DNA of 64,000 nucleotides from an uncultured delta proteobacterium. GTDB lineage: Bacteria; Myxococcota_A; Polyangia; Fen-1088. The stretch covers positions 1 to 64,000 of the forward strand of contig CAWCMR010000011.1 in assembly GCA_963796685.1 (NCBI GenBank), written 5' to 3'. Below are positions 3,083-13,496 of the stretch, one piece after another. Under the pieces are notes generated by a model. That model was not told the DNA's origin, made no database searches, and was given only the letters and a program-made list of their open reading frames with translations. Numbering within the stretch: position 1 is the first letter of the stretch; every line of letters starts with the position of its first letter. The position numbers were made by a program, and so were the translations under genes.

Positions 3083-3535
3083 CTATCCCTGGCCCCACTT
3101 CTGGGGGAGCTGCTCGGTCATCACTCGGGGCTGGGCGGGTCGGCGTAGTCGACCTCGGCGAGGTCGGACGTGCCCGAGAAGCTCGGTTTGCGGCGGTGGA
3201 TGCGCGGCTGTGCGGCGCGGGGCTTCGCTCGGGATTCCGAGGTGGTCCAGAATTTTGCGGATGACATCTGGCTTTGTGATCGCGGCCAGGATCTTCATGT
3301 GCCCTTGGCACTTGGGGCATTTCAGCGCGTCTATCAGGAACACGCGTTTGAGAAGAAGAGCCCAAGGTAGTCGACTGCCTCTTGGCATCTTGGTGATATC
3401 GATGTCGCGAGATTCGCCTTCGCCCGCCTTGCCGGCGCCTGCCGCTTCGGCGCTCGCCGCATCTGCCGCGGGTGGCGCAGGCGGTGTCGGCACCACCTTG
3501 GCGCGATCCTTGGCCGCGGGACCGAGGATGCCGTG
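3083..3535 (-). pseudogene. IS91/ISCR transposase C-terminal part
   Basis: HGILGPAAKDRAKVVP...WALLLKRVFLIDALKCPKCQGHMKILAAIT...ILDHLG continues the frame broken at 10414. Confidence 0.88.
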
Positions 3536-3641
3536 TTATGCGGAGCGCTCGATTATGCGGAGTTCAACCGTCCCCAAGTCCCGAGGCTCGCGTGTCCTGC
3601 GGACTGGACCGTCGCTGACTCCGCATAATATCAAGCCGACG

Positions 3642-3885
3642 TCACCCAGGAGCGGAGGTCAGCGGTGTCTTGCTGGGCATCAGCGATGCGATGAGACGGT
3701 CCGGCGGCCGGAAGCGCCCGGGGCGTAGTCGGAGGGGCACGATGGACTCGATAGCCTCGATCTTCTCGGTCGGATCGGCCTGCAGGTAGATCTCGGTGGT
3801 CGACTGGCTCGTGTGTCCGAGCCAGAGCGACACCTTGCGGAGATCCCCGGTGGCCCGGAGCGTGTCCAACGCGCATGTGTGACGC
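3642..3885 (-). pseudogene. Outer RitC C-terminal part
   Basis: RHTCALDTLRATGDLRKVSLWLGHTSQSTTEIY (LGH and catalytic Tyr) continues SPHTLR broken at ~7306. Confidence 0.9.
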
Positions 3886-4052
3886 TTATGCCGAGCACGG
3901 CATAAGCGGCATTATGCCGAGTCCCCGGTTATGCCGAGTGAGCCTCTCGATCTGGCGCGATCAACGGCGATTTCCTCGGCAGGTGGGCTTGCGGACTCGG
4001 CATAACCAGGGCGTCGTCGTCTCCTTCTGGCCACCGGGCCGAAGGAGGACAC

Positions 4053-5285
4053 ATGCCCCGGATGCACGACGATTTTCTGAAATGGCAACGACTGCGCGCT
4101 GGCCCCTTGGGTCCGCACCTCGACACGTTTGCAAAAACGCTCACTGAGAGGGGATATCCGCCTGCGACCGTGGCGTGCAAGGTGCGCCTGGCAGCGAAGT
4201 TCGGAGACTGGCTTGGACGGCGAGGACTGACTGTCGAGGAGGTCGACGAGCAGGCCGTAGCCCGCTTTGTCCGGCGCCATCCCTGCGTACCCCGGCGTGG
4301 AGACGCAGCGACATTGCGTGATGTCCTTGAACGGGTCCGTTCCGCCGGTCTTGCGCCGCCAGCGCCCGTCAAGGTCGATGACACTGCGATCGGGCGGATC
4401 GTGAGTGAGTTCGGCCGGTATCTGTTGGTGGACCGCGGCTTGTCCGTCTTGACTCAGATCAACTACCTGCCCATTGTCCGCTCGTTCCTCCTGGAGCGGT
4501 TCGACGGCAGGAGGGTGCACCTCAATGCGCTCGGGCCCCAGGATGCGGGTGAATTTCTGGTCCGGCATGTTCACGTGGTCCATCCAAAGAGAGCCGCTCT
4601 GATGGTTACCGCCCTACGCGGTTTTCTGCGGTGGGTGCACGTGAAAAGAGCCCTGGCTGCAGACCTCGCGGCCACGGTTCCCGCGGTCGCCTGCTGGCGT
4701 TTCTCAACGGTGCCGAAATCGATCCCCGCGCGCGACGTCGAGCATCTGTTGCGCCGCTGTCGACGAAGAAACTCCGAAGCCGGCCTGCGCGACCACGCGG
4801 TCATTATGCTGATGGCACGACTCGGCCTCCGCGGTGGAGAAGTCGTGAGCCTGGATCTGGCAGACTTCGACTGGGCCGCAGGCACGTTGCGGGTCCACGG
4901 CAAGGGTGGGCGGCAAGACGTCCTCCCGTTGCCGTCCGATGTCGGCAAGGCCGTCGCCCGGTACTTGCGCCATGGCCGCCCAGCATGCTCGTGCCGGAGA
5001 GTCTTCGTCCGCGCGAGAGCGCCGCGGCGTGGCTTCGCAACCACGGGCGCGGTCTGTACGATCGTGAAGCGAGCGCTGGAACGCGCCGAACTGGACCCAC
5101 CACGCAAAGGCGGGCACATCCTCCGCCATGCGCTCGCCTGCTCGATGCTGCGCCGAGGAGCGACCCTTACCGAGATCGGGCAGGTCCTGCGACACCGTCG
5201 AGCCGATACGACGACGATTTACGCGAAGGTAGACTTCCATGCGCTACGTGCGCTCGCTCCTGCATGGCCAGGAGGCAGGCGATGA
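4053..5285 (+). CDS. Tyrosine recombinase RitA-type
   Basis: LGLRGGEV, GKG, HILRH, LRH...TTTIYAKVD; RBS aaggagg. Confidence 0.93.
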   Translation: MPRMHDDFLKWQRLRAGPLGPHLDTFAKTLTERGYPPATVACKVRLAAKFGDWLGRRGLTVEEVDEQAVARFVRRHPCVPRRGDAATLRDVLERVRSAGLAPPAPVKVDDTAIGRIVSEFGRYLLVDRGLSVLTQINYLPIVRSFLLERFDGRRVHLNALGPQDAGEFLVRHVHVVHPKRAALMVTALRGFLRWVHVKRALAADLAATVPAVACWRFSTVPKSIPARDVEHLLRRCRRRNSEAGLRDHAVIMLMARLGLRGGEVVSLDLADFDWAAGTLRVHGKGGRQDVLPLPSDVGKAVARYLRHGRPACSCRRVFVRARAPRRGFATTGAVCTIVKRALERAELDPPRKGGHILRHALACSMLRRGATLTEIGQVLRHRRADTTTIYAKVDFHALRALAPAWPGGRR

Positions 5286-6217
5286 ATACGCTCCGCGAGG
5301 GCGCCGAGGAGTACCTGTCGCTGCGACGCCGTCTGGGCTACAAGCTCGACCGCTCGGGGCGGTTACTGCTGCAATTTGTGTCCTTCATGGAGCAGCGGAA
5401 GGCTCCGTTCATTACCAACGATCTGGTCGTCGAATGGGCCGTGCGGCCGACCAAGACCCAGCCCGTGTATTGGGCCAGCCGGCTATCGGCGGTCCGGCTC
5501 TTTGCACAGTATTGGCGCGCCACCGATTCTCGCACCGAGGTCCCTGCCCTCGGGCTCCTCCGGGCTCGGTATCAACGCAAGCGCCCCTACATATACAGCG
5601 AGGACGAGATCATGCGGCTGATGGATGCGGCGGCACGGCTCCCATCGCAGACGGGGCTTCGTGCTCAGACCTACGTCACGCTGCTTGGCCTGCTCACCGT
5701 GGCCGGTCTGAGGATCAGCGAGGCGATCGCTCTCGACCGCGAGGATGTTGACCTCGAAGGCGGGATCCTGACAATCCGCCGGACCAAATTCGGGAAGACC
5801 CGGCTGGTGCCCATTCATCGATCGACGAAACTGGCACTTTGCCGGTACGCACGCTTCCGTGATCGCGTTCATCCAACACCACGGACGAGAAGCTTCTTCG
5901 TCGGCGAGACAGGTGCCCGGGTGGTGAAGAACACTGCAGAAGACACCTTCGTCCATCTGTCTCGCCGGATTGGGCTTCGTGGTCCTGAAGGTCGTCACGG
6001 TCATGGGCCGCGTCTGCATGACCTTCGGCATCGGTGGGCCGTGGACACCATGCTGCGCTGGTACCGGGCAGGAGTCGATGTGGAGCGGCACCTGCCGCAG
6101 CCGTCGACCTACCTCGGGCACACCCACGTCAGTGATACCTACTGGTACCTGACCGCAGTGCCCGAGTTGATGAGCCTCGCCATGTCGCTCCTGGAGCGAG
6201 ATAGGACGTCGCCGTGA
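5282..6217 (+). CDS. Tyrosine recombinase RitB-type
   Basis: GLRISEA, TKFGKTRLVP, HDLRH, TYLGH...TYWYL; ATGA overlap with ritA. Confidence 0.93.
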   Translation: MNTLREGAEEYLSLRRRLGYKLDRSGRLLLQFVSFMEQRKAPFITNDLVVEWAVRPTKTQPVYWASRLSAVRLFAQYWRATDSRTEVPALGLLRARYQRKRPYIYSEDEIMRLMDAAARLPSQTGLRAQTYVTLLGLLTVAGLRISEAIALDREDVDLEGGILTIRRTKFGKTRLVPIHRSTKLALCRYARFRDRVHPTPRTRSFFVGETGARVVKNTAEDTFVHLSRRIGLRGPEGRHGHGPRLHDLRHRWAVDTMLRWYRAGVDVERHLPQPSTYLGHTHVSDTYWYLTAVPELMSLAMSLLERDRTSP

Positions 6218-7212
6218 AGCCCTCCCACGGATTCCCTGCGCTGCTTGAGTCCTTCTTCGTGGACCATCTCCTGCGCCAGCGTCAAGCAAGTCCACATACA
6301 GTGCAGAGCTATCGCGATACCTTCCGCCTACTGCTGGCCTTCACGAAGCAGCACCTGAAGAAGACTCCCTCGGCGCTCGCACTGGACGACCTCGACACAC
6401 CAACGATTGGCGCGTTCCTGGATCACATCGAGAAGGACCGCGGCAACTCTCCGCGCACCCGCAACGCCAGGCTCGCGGCGATCCACTCCTTCTTCCAGTA
6501 CGCCGCCCTCCAGGCGCCCGACTACAGCGCCGTCATCCAGAGGGTTCTGGCCATGCAGGGCAAGAAATACGATCGCGAGCTCGTCCACTTCCTGTCCCGG
6601 CCCGAGATCGACGCACTCCTCGAAGCTCCCGACAAGGCCACATGGTCCGGCCGGCGCGATCGCGCCATGCTCCTTGTGGCCGTTCAGACCGGGCTGCGCG
6701 TATCCGAGCTGGCCGCGCTCAACGTGCAGGACGTGGTCCTCGGACCCGGCGCGTACGTTCACTGCCTCGGCAAGGGCCGCAAGGAACGTTGCACGCCCCT
6801 GCGCAAAGAGGCCGTCTCGGTCCTCCGGGCGTGGCTGCGCGAACGTGCCGCCACCGGGACCGAGCCCCTCTTCCCCAACGCGCGGGGCGGTTTCCTCAGT
6901 CGCGACGGCGTCGAGTACCTGCTCGCGAAACACGTGCAGGTCGCTCGGATCCGCTGCCCCTCGCTGAGGGCGAAGCATGTGTCTCCGCACGTGCTGCGCC
7001 ACTCGACGGCAATGGATCTCCTTCAAGCCGGTGTCGACAGCTCGGTGATCGCGCTCTGGCTTGGTCACGAGTCGGTCGAGACCACGCAGATCTACTTCGC
7101 TGCCAGTCTCCAGCTCAAAGAGCGAGCGCTGGCCAAGACAGCACCCTCGGCAGCGCGACCTGCTCGCTTCCACCCCGACGACAAGCTCCTCGCCTTCCTA
7201 CAGAGCCTTTGA
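6214..7212 (+). CDS. Tyrosine recombinase RitC-type
   Basis: TGLRVSEL, GKGRKER, SPHVLRHS, WLGHESVETTQIY; GTGA overlap with ritB. Confidence 0.95.
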   Translation: MKPSHGFPALLESFFVDHLLRQRQASPHTVQSYRDTFRLLLAFTKQHLKKTPSALALDDLDTPTIGAFLDHIEKDRGNSPRTRNARLAAIHSFFQYAALQAPDYSAVIQRVLAMQGKKYDRELVHFLSRPEIDALLEAPDKATWSGRRDRAMLLVAVQTGLRVSELAALNVQDVVLGPGAYVHCLGKGRKERCTPLRKEAVSVLRAWLRERAATGTEPLFPNARGGFLSRDGVEYLLAKHVQVARIRCPSLRAKHVSPHVLRHSTAMDLLQAGVDSSVIALWLGHESVETTQIYFAASLQLKERALAKTAPSAARPARFHPDDKLLAFLQSL

Positions 7213-7305
7213 TTATGCCGAGTCGCGCACGTAAGCGAACCCGAAGTCCCCGTGATTCCTGCATGCAATGGCGGGCAACTCGGCATAACCGGGGACTCGG
7301 CATAA

Positions 7306-8072
7306 TGCCGCAGCGTGTGTGGCGAAACACTTCTGCCGGCCAGCGATGGGCACGCGACCGCTGCGGCGGCAACGTGCTTGCGAAGCACATATTCGAAGCC
7401 CGAGCGCGACATAGGGTGAGCGGTGGCCGCGAGGAACAACTCGGGACAGGAGGCAGTGCCTCGGATGGCGAGCCAGGCGCGGATAGCGTCGCCTACTTCC
7501 TTCCACAGCAGGAGCGCGCGCTCCTTGCGACCCTTGCCGAGCACGCAAATCTCGACGTAGCGGCCGTCGAAGCGCACGTTGTCGAGGCGCAGCCCGACGA
7601 GCTCGGAGACACGCAATCCGCCAGTGAGTGCGAGGTAGAGCATGGCGCGGTCGCGAATGCCGAGACGCGACGCTGGGTCCGGCGCGTCGAGGACGGCACG
7701 CGATTCCGTGGCCGACAGATGTTTCACCAGGCGGGTGTCGGTGCGCTGCAACGGGATCGCAAGCACGCGCTGGATCTGGTCGAGCGCCGCGGGAACGCGA
7801 TACTCGATGAAGTGCATGAAGGATCGGACGGCGGCCAGCCGCGTGTTGCGTGAGCGGGCGCCGTTGCCGCGCTCGCGTTGGATGTGGTCGAGGAATGCCA
7901 GCACGAGAGACGCGTCGATGTGCTCGATCTGGATCTCGGAGGGCGTTACGCCCAGGCGCCTGCTTGCGAACGCGAACAAGAGTTGGAAGGCATATGCATA
8001 GGCGACGCGCGTATTTTCACAGGTGATCCGCTCACGAAGAAACGCGGTGATGTGTGGAGCGATCGGGGTCAT
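7306..8072 (-). pseudogene. Outer RitC N-terminal part, interrupted at HTLRH
   Basis: GGLRVSEL, GKGRKER, SPHTLRH running directly into the inner RIT IR. Confidence 0.92.
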
Positions 8073-8975
8073 CGGCGTCCTCCTTCGAAGCGACGCTGGC
8101 AGGCGTCGGCAACCTGCGACATGAGCATTGGCGTGGCCTGAAAGTACCAGTAGGTATCAGCGATACAGGCTGTGGCCGAGGTACGTCGAAACCGCGAGCA
8201 TGTGCCTGGCGATTCGATCGCGCCGATCAGGAGAGCTTTCGAGAGCGCGCACGGCGAATGTGTGCCGGATGTCGTGCACGCGCGGTTTGCGTCCTCCCGA
8301 CCGCGCCGGCAGGCCAGCTTTCCGGAGCACCGTGAGCCATGCCTTGCGAAAGCCGCCGTAGGAAAGACGCGTGCCTTTGATGCTCACGAACACGTGGTCG
8401 TCGCTGCCGGCCACTGCACGTCGGCGGTCCAGATACTGCTTGATCCCGCTCTGCGCCGAGGGATGGAGCGGGACCAGACGCGTCTTGCCGAACTTGGTCT
8501 TGCGGATGACCAGGCCGTCCGATGTCACGTCAGCCATGCGCAAGGCGAGTGCTTCTGAGATGCGTAGCCCTGTCGCAAAGAGCAGCGCCAGCATCGTGCT
8601 CACGGTGAGCGGCCGGAGCGACTTTGCTGGTCCGAGCCGCGCTGCGACCTCGACGAGCCGGCGCGTTTCGTCCGGGGTGTAGATGTACGGAACCGGCCGA
8701 TGCCGCTTTCCCGAGAAGTGGCGATCCGGGGGAATCTCGTGGCGGGGGTCTTCGGCGTGGAGATAGCGGGCGAGTTGAACGACCCGCTGGAAGAGCCGGC
8801 ACCGCTGGCCAGGTGTGGCCGCGTGCGATGCCCACGCGAGGGCGGTTTCGGCGCGAACGTGGTCCTCGCCGCGGGCGGCGGCGAACTCGGCGAATCGACG
8901 CAGGTGCCGCTCGTATTTTCTGAGCGCGAAACCGCTTGCTCGCCGCGTGGCCAGCCAGGTATCGATGAGTGTCAT
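8069..8975 (-). CDS. Outer RitB-type recombinase with a +1 frameshift near 8168
   Basis: TGLRISEA, TKFGKTRLVP, HDIRH, STYLGHS, then shifted CIADTYWYFQATP...GGRR ending in an ATGA overlap with ritC. Confidence 0.88.
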
Positions 8976-10216
8976 CAGCATGACGCCCCTCCGATCCACG
9001 GCTGCGCCACTGAACGCAGAAGCTCCACATCGACCTTGGCGTAGTGGGAGGTCGTCTCGACAGATCGGTGCCGGAGCACTATTCCGATCGAAGGAAGGGA
9101 GATGCCTTCACGTAGCATCGCCGTCGCGGCAGAGTGACGCAGTAGATGAGCGCCCCGGGTCGGGGTGGATGCGCCCGCACGGGCGATGGCGCGCTTGACG
9201 ATGCAGGAAACGCAGGAACTTTCCGCCAACGGCCGCCACGGTGCACGGGATCTCAGAAAAACCCGGTCACATCCGACAACAGCGCGCCGGGCGCGCAAGT
9301 AGGCGAGGATCGCATCTCCGACTTCCTGGGGGAGCGGCAGCCGCACCTCGCGGCGCCCCTTGCCCGCGACCTGCACGCGAGCGTTTGCCCAGTCGATGTC
9401 GCTTAGGCGCATCCGGACGATGTCGCCGCCCCGTAGTCCGAGCCGGGCGAGGAGCAGCAGGATGGCGCGGTCGCGCGCACCGTCCGGTCGACTCGAATCG
9501 CACGCGTCGATGATCCGCTGCACGACTTCGGCGGACACGTACCTCGGCAGCGAATCCAAACTCCAACTCGCCACTGGCAGGACGGCCGCATCAAGACCAG
9601 GTCGGCACCGTCCCTCCAGTGCGAGGTAGCGCAGAAATGCGCGTGCGACGGTCGTAACTTGCTTCGCCGTTGCGGCGCCATGTCCACCGACTACCTCACG
9701 CACCGCCGCTCGAAGCACGCCCGCCCCGTAGCGAGCGGGGTCGTCACCGAGGTGTTCCAGGAGTGCGATGGCAACGCGCCTGTAGTGGCGCAAGGTCGTA
9801 TCTGTGGCGCCACGCTGGCGCCGCATCCACTCGCAAAACCCCGTCACCAGATCCGGTGTTGCTATCGCCTGCTGCCCCGGAACCGCAACGACCCCCACTG
9901 TGCGCAAGTACTGCACGAAGACCCACGTGCGCGGACGGGCGACTGCATGAAAACCGGCGCGGTTTCCGGGGCAACGGCATCGAGACAGGTGCGCCAAGAA
10001 TGCGCTCAAAGTTTCCTCGTCCAAATCCCCGATTCGCACGTCCTCAGCAGTGGCCCAAATGCCGAGATGCACGGCGTAGGTGATGCACCATGTGCCAATC
10101 CGCTTGCAGTAGCCGATCTCGCGTAGAGCAGTGGCGAAGCCGTCGAGATACGACCCAACGGGACTCGATCGAGCTCGCGCGAGCCAGTACGCCGATCGCA
10201 GAAAGTACTCCAACAT
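8975..10216 (-). CDS. Outer RitA-type tyrosine recombinase
   Basis: LGLRGGDI, GKG, HLLRHS, LRHRSVETTSHYAKVD; start MLEYF after gaggagg. Confidence 0.92.
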   Translation of the reverse strand: MLEYFLRSAYWLARARSSPVGSYLDGFATALREIGYCKRIGTWCITYAVHLGIWATAEDVRIGDLDEETLSAFLAHLSRCRCPGNRAGFHAVARPRTWVFVQYLRTVGVVAVPGQQAIATPDLVTGFCEWMRRQRGATDTTLRHYRRVAIALLEHLGDDPARYGAGVLRAAVREVVGGHGAATAKQVTTVARAFLRYLALEGRCRPGLDAAVLPVASWSLDSLPRYVSAEVVQRIIDACDSSRPDGARDRAILLLLARLGLRGGDIVRMRLSDIDWANARVQVAGKGRREVRLPLPQEVGDAILAYLRARRAVVGCDRVFLRSRAPWRPLAESSCVSCIVKRAIARAGASTPTRGAHLLRHSAATAMLREGISLPSIGIVLRHRSVETTSHYAKVDVELLRSVAQPWIGGASC

Positions 10217-10413
10217 TGTTTCCTCCTCGGTGGACGGGTCGGGATCATCCCGGCCCTGAGAGGAGGACACCTCCGTTATGCTGAGCCGTCTAGGGCGCGC
10301 CACGCGGTCAACTACCCGCCGACACGCAGGGATCGTGACGGGCACATCGCGGCACTCCGCATAATCGAGCGCTCCGCATAACATGGCTTATGCGGTGCTC
10401 TGCATAACCCGTG

Positions 10414-11548
10414 TTATCGGACAAGATGGCAACGAGGTCGGGGAATCAACGGGATCAGCTTCTCTATCAGCTCGTGCGGCGTGAATACGATCTGCGTCGT
10501 GCCGTTCCGCCAAACTCGCTTGAAGCGCAAGGCAAGCCGGCCGTCGGGCAGTTCTTGTAGGCGGTCGTTGGCAATGGGCGGCCTGGCAAGGTAGCGACAC
10601 AAGTGTTCGAGGCCGTCGCGATCGTTGGCACCCACGCGTACGTTCGCGTGCACGTTGAAACCGGCGACCTCCGCGCATCGCTTGCCTATGATCGCGGCTT
10701 CGGCATCCTCGCCGGTACCTCCCAGTCCCAATACGCGACAGCCTCGGCGCGGCCCCGTCGCGACTAGGCCTTGCACGGAGGCATTGGCCAGATGGTCGAG
10801 GGTCAACTGGTCGTCCTTGTCTTCCCCTGTGAGCCGCCCCAGATAGCGCGTGACCTTCCGGCACACGGCACGCGCCAGGCGCGCAATGTCCTCGTCGCTG
10901 GGTGCGGGCAGCGGGTGAAACAGCAGGTTGCCGTCGGGCTGCTCGGCGTACACCATCCATCGCGATGACGTGGAAGTGAACATTCAAATTCAGCGACGAC
11001 CCGAATCGCTGCACGACGGTCAGGCTTCCGGTCTGCAGCCGGCCACGCAGCTTGCGCTTCCGTGCGCGCCGACGCAGGTCGGAGTTGATGGCGCTGATGA
11101 ATGCGCCAAGCACCACGCTCGTGGCGTCGGGCGAATAGGCCATCTTGAAGCGCAAGGCATACGGTAGCGAGAGCACGTACTGTCGAGTGGGAACGCGGGG
11201 AAAAAGGTAATCCACGCAGAAAGCCGCCGTGTCGGCCATCCTGCGGCCAAGACAACTTGGGCAAAAACCACGTCGTTTACACGCGAACGCCACGACTCCG
11301 CTATGCCCGCAGTCTTTGCATCGGACGCGCAAAAAGCCATGAACCGGAATGCCACAACGAAGGTAAGCCTCGAGCTCGTCAAGCACGAAGGCGGGCAGCT
11401 CGCCGCCTCCTGATTCCAGATCTGCCAGGAACGTTGCCCAGTGTTCCTGTATCGTTCGATAAAGCAAGGTCGTTTCGGGGCGATGCCGCTCATACGCGCC
11501 CGCGGGCGCGTGGGTGTGACAGCTTGCTGCTGGTTGCGTGGAAAGCAC
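10414..11548 (-). pseudogene. IS91/ISCR HUH transposase N-terminal and catalytic part; frameshift near 10950, stop at 10414-10416
   Basis: Zn motif CKDC...CKRRGFCPSC; QRFGSSLNLNVHFH; GFNVHA; LCRYLARPP; PRPRCHLVR. Confidence 0.92.
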
Positions 11549-11603
11549 CAGCGGGACCTCTCGGCAACACTGCGATATTTGTTGCTAGCGGAACGCGCTT
11601 CGA

Positions 11604-11859
11604 CCACTTCCTGGAGGTCATGGCCTGTCCCGGTGGCTGCATCGGCGGCGGCGGTCAACCCTTGCCCACCGACGAAGAGACCCGCCGCAGGCGCATCGAA
11701 GCCATGTACGCCGAGGATCGCAGCATGCCCATTCGGCAATCGCACAAGAACCCGGCCATCCGTACGGTGTACGACGAGTTCCTGGGCGAGCCCTGCGGCG
11801 AGAAGGCGCACCACCTTCTGCACACGCACTACGCCGCCCGCTCGCCGCGCGGATTTTAA
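11604..11859 (+). pseudogene. 3' remnant of an [FeFe]-hydrogenase (H-cluster P3 motif plus small-subunit domain)
   Basis: FLEVMACPGGCIGGGGQP...SHKNPAIRTVYDEFLGEP...AHHLLHTHY. Confidence 0.92.
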
Positions 11860-11960
11860 CCCCACACACTGTCGCTAAGGCCTAGCCGACGTATAAGGTC
11901 AGCCACGGCTTGCTGTCCCGAGAGATATCGCCGATGGGTCATGCTGCCTGCCGGAGCCTA

Positions 11961-12070
11961 GGCTAGTCGGTACAAGCACCCTTTTCCTTCACCACCAGAA
12001 ACGTCGATAACCGATCTTCTGTGGACTACACCCACCTACACTACATGCCCTGGCTGTCCCTATGCCCCAG
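11961..12070 (-). repeat. Second, diverged copy of the IS91-like oriIS end
   Basis: Shares cctttt-ccttcacca...cgataaccgatcttctgt..actacacccacctaca...ggct.tccctatgccc with 2945-3036. Confidence 0.8.
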
Positions 12071-12357
12071 CTGTCCCTCCCGGCGGCCCAGGGACCATGC
12101 AGCTCTACCGGATTGGGTCTGCGCATCACCTGCTGCGGTTCGTCTCCGATGCGAGTGGCGCAACTCTCCACTACCACTAGCTGGCCGCCGACGCGCGGCC
12201 GCTTTCGGACGTCACGCTCGGCGACGTGAACGTCCTACGACCCGTCGCCCTGTTCCAGACCACCTCGGGACTGCTCGCAGATTGGTACTCGATGAAAGGC
12301 ATCTATCTGTCGCCGCTCTGCCCATAGCGGACGTCCCGTGGGGACCGGCCGAGTCAG

Positions 12358-12461
12358 TGAAGATGAGAGACGACTATTGGTACAGCAGCTACCTCGGAAA
12401 TCTCTACCTGCTCGCCATGTCGGGGAACATGTGGAACCCCGACATCCTCGGCGTCAAGTAG
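12358..12461 (+). pseudogene. 3' stump resembling a GH8 glycoside hydrolase C-terminus
   Basis: DYWYSSYLGNLYLLAMSGNMW resembles the terminal YY...L.LL..SGN helix of GH8 enzymes; short match. Confidence 0.45.
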
Positions 12462-12667
12462 CCGTCGAGGAATGCCGGGCGTCATGCACCTCGTGGCCGG
12501 ACTTACGATACGCTCGCTTGACCGGCCTTGAGGACGCCTTGGGATTCCGGGTTTCGCCGATCACGGCAAAACACGGAATCCTTTGGCGATGTGGGGAATC
12601 CAACCAACGGTTTGCTCCTCACAACCCATTCGCGGCGCCGGCAGGGGCGTCGCACAGGAGATATGGA

Positions 12668-12931
12668 ATGCCCACCGTCATCGGATATCATCACGTGAAG
12701 GACACCAAGCATTGGCTCGCCTCGCCCATGCGCAAGAAGTTCTTTGGCCCGCTTGGTGTCACTGGCATTCGCACATTCGTCGACCCGCAGAATCCGACTC
12801 GCGTCGCGGTGCTGATGGATGTTCCTGATATGAATACGCTCAAGACCGCGATGAGCTCCCCAGGTGCTGCCGAGGCGATGGCGCACGATGGAGTGCTGGC
12901 CGAGACGCTGGTCATGCTTGTCGAGACGTAG
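12668..12931 (+). CDS. Small conserved hypothetical protein (87 aa, ferredoxin-like-fold pattern)
   Basis: aggag RBS; HxVKD...W...AM..DGV pattern. Confidence 0.75.
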   Translation: MPTVIGYHHVKDTKHWLASPMRKKFFGPLGVTGIRTFVDPQNPTRVAVLMDVPDMNTLKTAMSSPGAAEAMAHDGVLAETLVMLVET

Positions 12932-12977
12932 CCGGATCCTGGATGTTGGCAGGTAGGATTGTGCGCCAGGAGGCCCC

Positions 12978-13496
12978 ATGACACCCGACGCGATCAAACT
13001 TTGGGCCCGATACAACGCCCACGCCAACACGGAAATGGGACGTGTGCTCGACCAGCTCGCCGATGCGGAGTGGAACCGGGTGTTGGGTGGCTATTACCCG
13101 TCCATCCGTTCGCTTTGTTCCCACCTGTTCATCGTCGATTTCAGCTGGCTGCGACGCTTTACCAACCTTCGCCCGTTCGCCTACGCCCAGCACCCCATCT
13201 TCCAAGGAAACCCGACTGGGGGTGGGTTGCTCTTTCCCAGCGTCCTCGACTACGACACCGAGAGGAAGGCCTTGGACGAATGCCTCACGAGGTTTGCCGA
13301 GGAGGTCACGGCCGAGGACCTGACGAAGCGCCTGCGCTACAAGGACTTCAAAGGCATCGATCAAGAGCGGAAAGTAAGTGGGCTGATCTTGCACATGTTC
13401 AATCACCAGGCCCACCACCGGGGCATGATCTCCCTCTATCTCGACATGCTCGGCAAGGAGAACGACTTCAGCTCGCTGTTGGGGCTGGTCGAGTAG
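12978..13496 (+). CDS. DinB family protein
   Basis: RYNAHAN, SIRSLCSH, HMFNHQAHHRG metal-binding motif. Confidence 0.9.
   Translation: MTPDAIKLWARYNAHANTEMGRVLDQLADAEWNRVLGGYYPSIRSLCSHLFIVDFSWLRRFTNLRPFAYAQHPIFQGNPTGGGLLFPSVLDYDTERKALDECLTRFAEEVTAEDLTKRLRYKDFKGIDQERKVSGLILHMFNHQAHHRGMISLYLDMLGKENDFSSLLGLVE

Follow-up and report, generated by a model that had tools for sequence, protein, structure and literature searches.

Nested recombinase-in-trio elements whose six-base crossover cores probably carry the codons of earlier targets

Results

Two nested RIT elements lie at the locus

The stretch analysed here, referred to as the window, is 64,000 nucleotides of an uncultured delta proteobacterium (GenBank assembly GCA_963796685.1, contig CAWCMR010000011.1, positions 1 to 64,000) and corresponds to contig C11 of a genome designated G000, an assembly of 26 contigs that is 88.6% complete with 6.5% contamination. 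It contains two recombinase-in-trio (RIT) elements, one inside the other: an outer RIT at 3530-10413 with its genes on the minus strand, and an inner RIT at 3880-7311 on the plus strand. Both carry ritA, ritB and ritC in that order with short overlaps (ATGA overlaps in the inner element), a Pfam Phage_integrase match was found in 6 of 6 rit frames, and the outer ritC is split by the inner RIT. The inner genes (ritA 4053-5285, ritB 5282-6217 and ritC 6214-7212, plus strand) lie in a body at 3912-7305 (plus strand; terminal repeats at 3912-3938 and 7279-7305; 3393-3395 bp in five copies), within which no fourth gene was found, leaving three Phage_integrase proteins only. The outer genes, all on the minus strand, are ritA (8975-10381, including the ritA-proximal terminal repeat at 10355-10381), ritB (8157-8999) and the two pieces of ritC, an amino-terminal part at 7312-8072 with the last residues ...PHTL and a carboxy-terminal part at 3631-3879 (TCALDTLRATGDLRKVSLWLGH...), which was assigned by reading and for which the intact orthologue in genome G030 is SPHSLRHTCALETLRATGDLRKV. 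The start of the outer ritA is uncertain: the longest frame, from about 10384, begins at an ATG within the middle core described below (10382-10384) and exceeds the inner RitA by 59 residues, so the true start is probably further downstream.

The inner and outer proteins pair as A-A, B-B and C-C at 35-44% identity, and the two RITs are different lineages, with 8-base arms that differ at a single position (TTATGCCG in the inner and TTATGCGG in the outer element). The inner RitA has a clear SAM-like match at residues 118-194 and a weak second one at residues 23-73, below the cut-off. The portion of PMC8138268 covered here describes RitA with two core-binding domains and RitC with an additional C-terminal helix.

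The ends of the two elements follow one plan. Each end of the body carries two 10-bp arms at 7-bp spacing, as in the outer ritC-proximal terminal repeat at 3536-3562 (TTATGCGGAG), which was recognised by a 34-nt inverted match to 10354-10387. One end of the body continues into a 6-bp core, then a 20-bp palindrome, here called M, that consists of two arms around a 4-bp spacer, and then another core. Inverted matches of 34 nt are present at the ends of both RITs and the palindrome adjoins the ritA end; M occupies 3886-3905 in the inner RIT (arm, 4 bp, arm) and 10388-10407 in the outer RIT (TTATGCGG tgct CTGCATAA).

Each RIT therefore has three cores, two at the junctions with the target and one in the middle, between M and the body. 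An earlier sequence-only reading of the window had described the middle cores as inverted copies; their positions and sequences stand, and each is more precisely the centre of a complete second site of arm, core and arm (3906-3911 and 10382-10387, plus strand). These sites read CCGCATAA-6-TTATGCGG and CGGCATAA-6-TTATGCCG, with inverted arms around a 6-bp centre, a layout that we take to be that of a dif site. The second site resembles the junction that would be expected in a circular form.

The cores are codons of the interrupted genes

The same reading had placed six 6-bp cores in defined codon frames, and reading out the sequence bore this out at 6 of 6 positions. On the plus strand the outer hexamers are gccgtg (3530-3535), catggc (10382-10387) and cccgtg (10408-10413), the first and last being cacggc and cacggg on the minus strand, and the inner hexamers are tgacgc (3880-3885; gcgtca on the minus strand), gcggca (3906-3911) and tgccgc (7306-7311; gcggca on the minus strand).

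The outer RIT interrupts a minus-strand gene with Zn_Tnp_IS91 and Y2_Tnp matches (Pfam), whose amino-terminal part lies at 10414-11548 and whose carboxy-terminal part (ILGPAAKDR...KCPKCQGHMKILAAI..., assigned by frame reading and by tblastn against other IS91-family copies) lies downstream of the RIT at 3083-3529. The frame that holds both conserved parts reads ...CHLVR-*-H-G-ILGPAAKDR, or by codon ...CHLVR-TAA-CAC-GGG upstream and CAC-GGC-ATC-CTC (H-G-I-L-G-P-A-A...) downstream. Because intact IS91-family paralogues in G000 read H-x-V-R-Y-(S/F)-G at this place, the outer cores are the His-Gly codons (cac-ggN) that follow the conserved Arg-Tyr, as the earlier reading of these codons had it. 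The TAA codon, together with a frameshift (near 10949-10955, with a change of frame at 10949-10972 from HFHVIAMDGV in one frame to VYAEQPDG in another), marks this target as a decayed copy of the gene.

The inner RIT interrupts the Arg-His codons of the HxLRH motif in the outer ritC, also in agreement with the earlier claim. The ritC frame across the insertion reads PHTLRH, and by reading the split gene gives P-H-T-L-R-H followed by T-C-A-L-D-T-L-R-A-T-G-D-L-R-K-V-S-L-W-L-G-H, in which the core takes in the wobble base of Leu, all of the Arg codon and the first two bases of His. In both window RITs one junction core is identical to the core of the empty site and the other differs from it at the wobble base. 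It is the body-side core that equals the empty-site core (7306-7311, g-cgg-ca, and 3530-3535, cacggc) and the M-side core that does not (3880-3885, g-cgt-ca, and 10408-10413, cacggg; all four read on the minus strand).

Empty sites show which cores came from elsewhere

Empty sites were found in assembled contigs of the public metagenome runs X2, X3 and X5, from three studies; a further run, X1, gave only short low-depth pieces, and parts of the window that no contig covers carry no evidential weight. Contigs of X2, X3 and X5 hold an outer RIT about 98% identical to that of the window with an intact ritC, in which 3879 is joined to 7306. The joint skips 3426 bases, which is the inner RIT minus one core, and the empty ritC site thus retains exactly one 6-bp core, tgccgc (3432 minus 3426), the signature of a 6-bp crossover without duplication of the target. 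Two X5 contigs run from the flank of the IS91 C-terminal part through g-ccgtg into the flank of the N-terminal part, giving an uninterrupted IS91 site with the core cacggc; the loose contig end before 10409 in X5 reconstructs ...gaggat-gccgtg-ttatcgg. One X5 contig joins the C-part flank to the ritA end, which is the flipped form of the second outer copy, O2, described below. Contigs from sediment and peat metagenomes covering 3534-3879 and 7306-10383 stop exactly at the outer cores (3534 and 10383), as would be expected if several contexts or forms coexist in the samples.

The empty-site cores being gcggca and cacggc, neither gcgtca (3880-3885) nor cacggg (10408-10413) was supplied by the present targets. 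An 80% identical relative in G030 has precisely this foreign inner core, g-cgt-ca, at the corresponding place of its intact ritC (...agc-ttg-cgt-cac-acc). The window also holds a further, unoccupied target of the inner RIT, the HDIRH codons of the outer ritB at 8262-8276 (gac-atc-cgg-cac-aca, core c-cgg-ca); the corresponding site on contig C25 is occupied, and the junction core on that flank is ccggca, the core of the target.

Copies in the same genome permute the cores

The inner RIT is present in five copies in G000 (I1 to I5) that are at least 99.85% identical, and their bodies show 2 mismatches in 13,576 compared bases, a count that leaves out two copies with 1-nt indels (99.85-99.91% identical). 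All five sit at Arg-His codons of HxLRH in three tyrosine-recombinase genes. Two are at HTLRH of the outer ritC (the window and C10:144841-148272), one on C12 is at HVLRH of a third recombinase designated intX, and two have a different gene on each side, namely a copy on C25 with the outer ritB at HDIRH on one side and the C-terminal part of ritC on the other, and a copy at C10:129042-132472 with intX on one flank and the C-terminal part of ritC on the other. A search of G000 for an intact intX found none. The C-terminal part of ritC on C25 (684174-684372) ends 89 nt after the core, just before the catalytic Tyr codon (..STTE/IY), and the DNA that follows this stump holds a repeat of about 120 bp with 15 further occurrences in the genome, including one next to the C10 intX flank.

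Written in the orientation of the body, two inner copies read [tgacgc]-M-[GCGGCA]-body-[TGCCGC]-target and three read target-[GCGCCA or CCGGCA]-body-[TGCCGC]-M-[gcggca]-target. M lies on the ritA-end side in the former and on the ritC-end side in the latter, and its orientation relative to the body is constant in 5 of 5 copies, so the two layouts would be two ways of opening one circle. Five of the ten junction cores differ from gcggca. Comparison of empty sites with junction cores showed no target duplication, and one junction hexamer that is not from the target, in I1/I2, I4, I5 and O1 (the outer RIT of the window). The carried core adjoins M in 4 of 4 informative insertions (I1/I2, I4, I5 with I3, and O1), which hints at a fixed strand bias like the one given for Tn554 and the SEs in PMC10214605, on too few events to rely on. 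Left and right junction cores are unequal in I1/I2, I5, O1 and O2, and the mismatch tolerance in the overlap that had been proposed from the window is borne out by these copies.

The outer RIT has two whole copies, one truncated copy and one end fragment in G000. O1 is the window copy; O2, at C10:144471-151347, also carries the inner RIT; O3, on C25, shares the flank of O1 and is cut short at ritB by an inner copy; and only one end remains of O4 (C10:128693). They sit at His-Gly of at least three diverged IS91-family transposase copies, and the IS91 flanks are 85-97% identical, the elements themselves 99.9%. In the transposase sense O1 reads ccgataa-[cacggg]-M-[gccatg]-body-[cacggc]-atcctcgg and O2 reads ccgataa-[cacggc]-M'-[cccgtg]-body'-[catggc]-atcctcgg. 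If O1 is excised through its outer cores with cacggg retained in the circle site, and is then reinserted via catggc into a cacggc target, the product is O2, letter for letter; deriving O1 from O2 by the same scheme works too. O1 and O2 both carry the inner RIT at the identical place in ritC with identical cores (1 mismatch in 3432), from which it follows that the 6.9-kb composite moved with a broken ritC.

The stop codon before the outer core leaves the IS91 flank ending in ATAA, which is RIT-arm-like. A 7-bp overlap was considered as the source of the TAA and rejected: no pyrimidine is kept there at 4 of 4 O1/O2 junctions, and the right edge of the exchange falls exactly after the 6-mer. Another IS91-family element (50% identity, E about 1e-25) is present in twelve copies on C9 (8522-9082 and 11 more), which resemble the query to about the same degree. 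None has a RIT, and the target place in them is R-Y-S-G.

Relatives in other genomes and plasmids use the same motifs

Among 201 genomes searched, the inner RIT was matched in 11 and the outer RIT in 8, each count including G000. Of six junctions of inner relatives with 86-91% identity, five are in Phage_integrase genes (profile positions about 127-136) and one is elsewhere. One of two loci in G004 is in a Phage_integrase gene with the core c-agg-ca and the second reads ...IRAF-R-H, likewise with c-agg-ca. In G053 the site reads HML-R-H and then CFATHMLETG, with g-agg-ca at both junctions and gcggca as the middle core.

The outer relative in G030 abuts cac-ggg-gtc-ctc (H-G-V-L-A-P-A-A-G-W-R-P-H-V-V-P...C-P-R-C-K-G-R-M-K-I-L-A-A-V), which by reading appears to be the C-terminal part of another, more distant IS91-family gene, a piece for which Pfam gave no match. 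Its ritA end was not found within 8 kb upstream, and the copy seems truncated because an IS91 N-terminal part abuts ritB there. Repeated insertion of each RIT at one conserved motif, proposed earlier from the window alone, is thus supported for the inner RIT by the outer ritC (HTLRH), the outer ritB (HDIRH), the third recombinase (HVLRH) and the relatives in Phage_integrase genes, and for the outer RIT by the His-Gly codons of the diverged IS91 copies and of the distant IS91 gene in G030. The carry-over of cores finds support in the foreign gcgtca and cacggg set against the empty-site cores, in the G030 ritC allele g-cgt-ca and in the permutation between O1 and O2.

A plasmid search with the inner RIT returned only relatives of at most 90% identity (14 records at 80-90% and 182 at 60-80%), none covering 80% or more of the query. 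The plasmid pNGR234a (NC_000914.2, locus L153, 2097-8922) holds a RIT with different arms inside the ritC of a second RIT, inserted at P-H-I-F-R-H followed by S-L-A-M-K-L-L, again at Arg-His codons, with c-cga-ca at both junctions, a 20-bp module and the middle core g-cga-ca. The second RIT of this plasmid abuts a gene piece that by reading resembles IS66 TnpB (...G-L-D-P-F). It has 84-nt inverted repeats and, at one end, a conserved stretch (gggttagtccaa, with a short hairpin before it); a Mesorhizobium locus (L076) shares the gggttagtccaa stretch, and the two may belong to a lineage with a longer end module. A scan for arm-like 8-mers at an Aromatoleum plasmid locus (L154) found no RIT ends.

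Unrelated genomes share the layout

A survey with the arm pattern TTATGCSG-N9-TTATGCSG, taking one genome per species, yielded at least 119 stretches; the 80 loci among the matches listed come from Bacillota, Actinomycetota, Bacteroidota, Pseudomonadota, Acidobacteriota, Verrucomicrobiota, Spirochaetia and others. Rit-like genes were found just inside 52 of 87 usable ends, and the rest lie at contig edges or are unverified as RIT ends. The layout of core, M, reverse-complemented core, arm, 7 bp and arm recurs, with M by the ritA end in some loci and by the ritC end in others. Certain lineages have M arms unlike their body arms, which may point to one recombinase paralogue per arm pair.

Of 33 flank pieces that we chose for Pfam scanning from the 87 ends, 25 matched enzyme families of mobile elements: Transposase_mut (5), RVT_1/GIIM (4), IS66 (4), large serine recombinase (2), HNH (2, one weak), tyrosine recombinase (2, one weak), IS1634 (2), and one each of IS481, DDE_Tnp_1_4 (below the Pfam cut-off), ISL3 and TrwC relaxase. 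The remaining pieces, which are not counted in the 25, matched HsdR, DUF736 or DUF3987 (weak), one each, or had no Pfam match (5). The targets in the survey are thus not all mobile-element enzymes. At L080:1084-1983 the Walker-A codons (..HTQGSG) of the gene for a type I restriction R subunit are interrupted by a RIT, and two RITs sit at HRVFVGR(V/I)E, the gene part beyond the L068 junction (L068:1917-2087) being the one that matches DUF736.

The breakpoints of independent elements recur within families. Transposase_mut is broken between profile positions 254 and 255 in five loci (Arthrobacter, Halomonas, Mesorhizobium and two metagenome-assembled genomes) with the cores c-gtg-ca, g-gtg-ca, g-gtt-ca and g-ttg-ca; RVT_1 is broken between 153 and 154, at Ala-Asp of YADD, with gcc-gac, gcc-gat and gca-gat; DDE_Tnp_IS66 is broken between 258 and 259; and IS1634 is broken between 140 and 141 with acg-ttg and acc-ttg. 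The targeted codons seen are Val-His in IS256/Mutator transposases, Ala-Asp in the reverse-transcriptase YADD, Arg-His or His-Asp in HxLRH, Thr-Leu in IS1634, the NNxxER region in IS66, His-Gly in IS91 and the end of the catalytic domain in serine recombinases. All 8 motif groups (30 ends, with M assumed at the opposite end of the element where an end lacked it) have M on a constant side of the target and the body in varying orientation. A constant M side is what a two-site circle predicts, because an asymmetric core fixes the alignment of either site with the target.

Target genes were called by GC3-weighted frame choice, clustering and motif reading. The longest open frame touching the junction was tried as a guide to the target gene and dropped, as it was often the wrong frame in high-GC loci.

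Core variation falls mainly at third codon positions

The six window cores alone have three variable sites, all at third codon positions (P about 0.02). Across eight motif groups, variable core sites number 15 of 16 at third positions and 2 of 32 at first or second positions (Fisher P about 2e-9), a test that mostly shows that the targets are coding sequence. The count excludes the gcatca core of the degenerate G001 copy, the HNH and IS66 groups (variable residues), the G071 junction core (in a Sel1 gene), L101 and L073 (frame not established) and L038, L041, L043 and L098 (cores unmatched). With 3,102 to 13,457 occurrences of each core 6-mer in the genome, matching a core is not enough to bring five copies to Arg-His codons. 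In G000 the three inner targets share CAC-NNN-NTN-CGN-CAC-AC; the rit genes of the inner RIT itself and the outer ritA read RHA, RHR or RHS there and are not hit.

Only the internal cores and the junction cores that are not from the target can test carry-over, since the other junction cores are target-gene sequence. The middle cores lie outside any gene, and they read target-motif residues in O1, O2, all five inner copies, G004, G053 and G071, and in L104, L045, L082, L048, L035, L077, L072, L051 and L093. The difference between middle and junction cores is synonymous in O1, O2, I1/I2, I4, I5, G053, G071, L104, L048 and L035 and non-synonymous in L052, L088, L101 and L073. In L052 and L088 the change is at the free residue that follows the HNH-motif Cys, and L073 is like them at the DNA level, with neither its frame nor its target family established.

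Discussion

We consider it likely that RITs transpose by tyrosine-recombinase recombination over a 6-bp overlap through a circle with two sites, and that their cores are replaced in the process by the sequence of earlier targets. The free form would be a circle with two complete sites, each consisting of a 6-bp core between two inverted 10-bp arms. The sites would be mutually inverted, with the 20-bp palindrome M between them, and the circle would present six arm repeats for three recombinases. Excision between the two junction cores would produce this circle, and either site could recombine with a target, giving an integrated element of junction, body, inverted middle core, M and junction, with three cores. 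Two linear forms would result, in which body and M are both flipped and M is always on the same side of the target. The overlap would tolerate one or two mismatches, one junction receiving the target core and the other the core of the element, and at the next excision a junction core would become the core of the circle site, so that the cores are replaced stepwise by sequence of earlier targets. Each lineage would recognise DNA that encodes a conserved motif in an enzyme of another mobile element, and successive cores would differ mainly at synonymous positions because the targets vary mainly there. The anatomy, the constant targets, the empty sites, the two linear forms, the unequal junction cores within one insertion and the permutation of cores between copies are seen directly; we infer the circle, the heteroduplex and the assignment of each protein to its place of action.

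Several observations weigh against this account. No circle junction or heteroduplex was seen, and in short sequences the junction of a circle is indistinguishable from the sites in the alternative integrated form. The metagenomes contribute assembled contigs rather than reads, and the chimeric flanks of I3 and I4 could in principle be assembly errors across 3.4-kb repeats. The composite moved with its ritC broken, and the G000 assembly, at its stated completeness, holds no intact outer RIT. In all three IS91 flanks that bear a RIT, TAA stands in place of the Tyr codon of seven intact IS91-family paralogues (CGA-TAA before the core at window 10414-10419, C10:144459-144464 and C25:678503-678508), for which the model gives no reason. 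The junction cores belong to the target gene, so a wobble pattern is expected there anyway, and the flank pieces scanned by Pfam, being our own choice, are not an unbiased sample.

Some relatives and survey loci also depart from the motif rule. The earlier reading had asked that other copies be tabulated by target, codon and cores; most fall at the same motif, with exceptions. The degenerate copy in G001 has HTL and the core gcatca, with His in place of Arg, a non-synonymous change. A close relative in G071 has inserted in a Sel1-repeat gene on the opposite strand, and its junction core reads gaggca; its middle core is t-cgc-ca, still x-Arg-Hi despite the Sel1 location. The specificity is for DNA and not for protein. 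Non-synonymous differences between middle and junction cores occur in the HNH and IS66 groups and at L101 and L073, and for L038, L041, L043 and L098 the two cores could not be matched.

The alternative that survives best, though we regard it as improbable, is strict homology at a few fixed core positions as for IntDOT, with the variable positions ignored by the enzymes, the wobble match supplied by coding targets and no memory of earlier sites. Inner core positions 3, 5 and 6 and outer positions 1, 2, 4 and 5 indeed never vary here, and in the lineages that target HNH genes TGC is constant and the next codon free. Such a rule is compatible with carry-over, which follows mechanically once mismatched overlaps resolve, but it leaves unexplained the exact permutation between O1 and O2 and the x-Arg-Hi internal core of G071 in a Sel1 gene.

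It is also possible to suppose that the cores are fixed and that their differences are point mutations acquired after insertion, with nothing carried over and the wobble pattern arising from junction cores within coding sequence. Each core difference is a single base, the synonymous pattern is what one expects of junction, that is target, sequence, and middle and junction cores are exact reverse complements at L037, L045, L051, L068, L072, L077, L081, L082, L087, L093 and L108. However, the inner bodies differ at 2 of 13,576 bases and the junction cores differ from gcggca at five of ten; the internal catggc and the cacggg lie outside any gene and yet read His-Gly; the outer cores are permuted, not mutated, in O2; and gcgtca matches the G030 ritC allele. 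We therefore think mutation a very unlikely source of the differences.

Equally slim, in our judgement, is the chance that these loci are in-place invertible switches of the shufflon kind, in which the body flips between inverted cores and the elements no longer transpose. An inverted middle core and the occurrence of both body orientations at the same kind of target would fit a switch. The two orientations, however, are at different loci with flanks 85-97% identical, M flips with the body in 8 of 8 copies, which would require two separate inversions, empty ritC and IS91 sites exist, and one inner lineage occupies three target genes in G000. That the chimeric flanks and alternative forms are artefacts of assembling a 3.4-kb repeat present five times is hardly credible: the assembly is in 26 contigs with some contamination and I3 and I4 have flanks from two genes, but the joints and the flipped form recur in contigs of three other studies, relatives elsewhere and pNGR234a share the layout, and the flanks of the window element match on both sides.

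Transposition through a two-site circle with replaceable cores is thus the account we retain for the elements studied here. Whether RITs in general live as parasites of other mobile elements by homing to their motifs, with one codon pair per lineage, a two-site circle and cores that form a rolling record of targets with a fixed strand bias, the donor core staying at the junction beside the palindrome, is a broader proposition toward which we lean only slightly; the evidence that the motif rule is general across RITs is strong, and falls short of proof.

If true, this broader reading would explain the variation at RIT ends, the accumulation of RITs among tangles of broken recombinase and transposase genes on plasmids (pNGR234a and pHG1, for example) and perhaps the need for three recombinases. 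The target rule would make RITs parasites of transposons, introns and integrases and would account for recombinase tangles on symbiosis and catabolic plasmids. Precise ends, a crossover site, two integration sites, empty sites and a target rule make RIT movement testable with defined substrates. The cores, as a short record of earlier insertion sites, would allow the recent history of an element to be traced from its sequence, and RITs would be a natural example of mismatch tolerance by tyrosine recombinases, at overlap positions that can be predicted.

RIT elements (Van Houdt et al. 2009/2012, Ricker et al. 2013) have been known since 2009 and are present in many phyla. The sections of PMC3414803 and PMC10214605 covered here describe three overlapping tyrosine-recombinase genes, terminal inverted repeats of about 34 bp and a palindrome overlapping one end, as well as "sequence variation at the ends" and multiple near-identical copies per genome. 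Insertions in IS66 tnpA, in radC and in a Tn6049-like transposase gene are recorded in parts of PMC2864759 and PMC3414803, and Table 1 of the 2023 comparison gives target specificity and movement as not tested (PMC10214605). In the covered portions of the remaining sources, a mobilome study reports raised rit-element coverage and no circle junctions (PMC5737581), RitA, RitB and RitC are classed as simple, Xer-like recombinases (PMC8138268), and RitABC appears only as a table entry (PMC10322971). The window elements share the ritA-ritB-ritC trio, the repeats of about 34 bp, the one-end palindrome and the multiple copies of known RITs. The 6-bp cores, the second att site and the targeted motif codons are described here for the present elements; the RIT literature, within the extracts searched (PMC10214605, PMC3414803, PMC5737581, PMC8138268, PMC2864759 and PMC10322971), gives no description of 6-bp cores, a second att site or a motif rule.

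Tn554 and the SEs are tyrosine-recombinase transposons that make no target duplication and carry six donor-flank bases into the new site, according to the covered part of PMC10214605. The present RITs are alike in that one junction core is not that of the target. They differ in their proteins, which are three Phage_integrase proteins and not TnpABC or IntA-Tfp-IntB-Srap; Tn554 and the SEs have a single att site, without a 20-bp palindrome between two inverted sites, and their targets are not conserved codons in genes of other mobile elements.

Xer recombination acts at dif, which has in common with the RIT sites two inverted arms of about 10 bp ending in ...ATAA that surround a 6-bp central region. 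Unlike dif, which serves chromosome resolution, the RIT site belongs to a mobile element with three recombinases and six arm repeats. Recombination with heterologous overlaps is tolerated by Tn916, with its coupling sequences, and by CTnDOT, whose IntDOT needs only the bases beside the first cleavage. Homing elements, that is inteins and group I and II introns with homing endonucleases, occupy codons of conserved catalytic motifs and tolerate synonymous variation there. The likeness of RITs to these is one of analogy only: the chemistry of RITs is that of site-specific recombination rather than retrohoming or the repair of double-strand breaks, and the host gene is broken, with no splicing to restore it.

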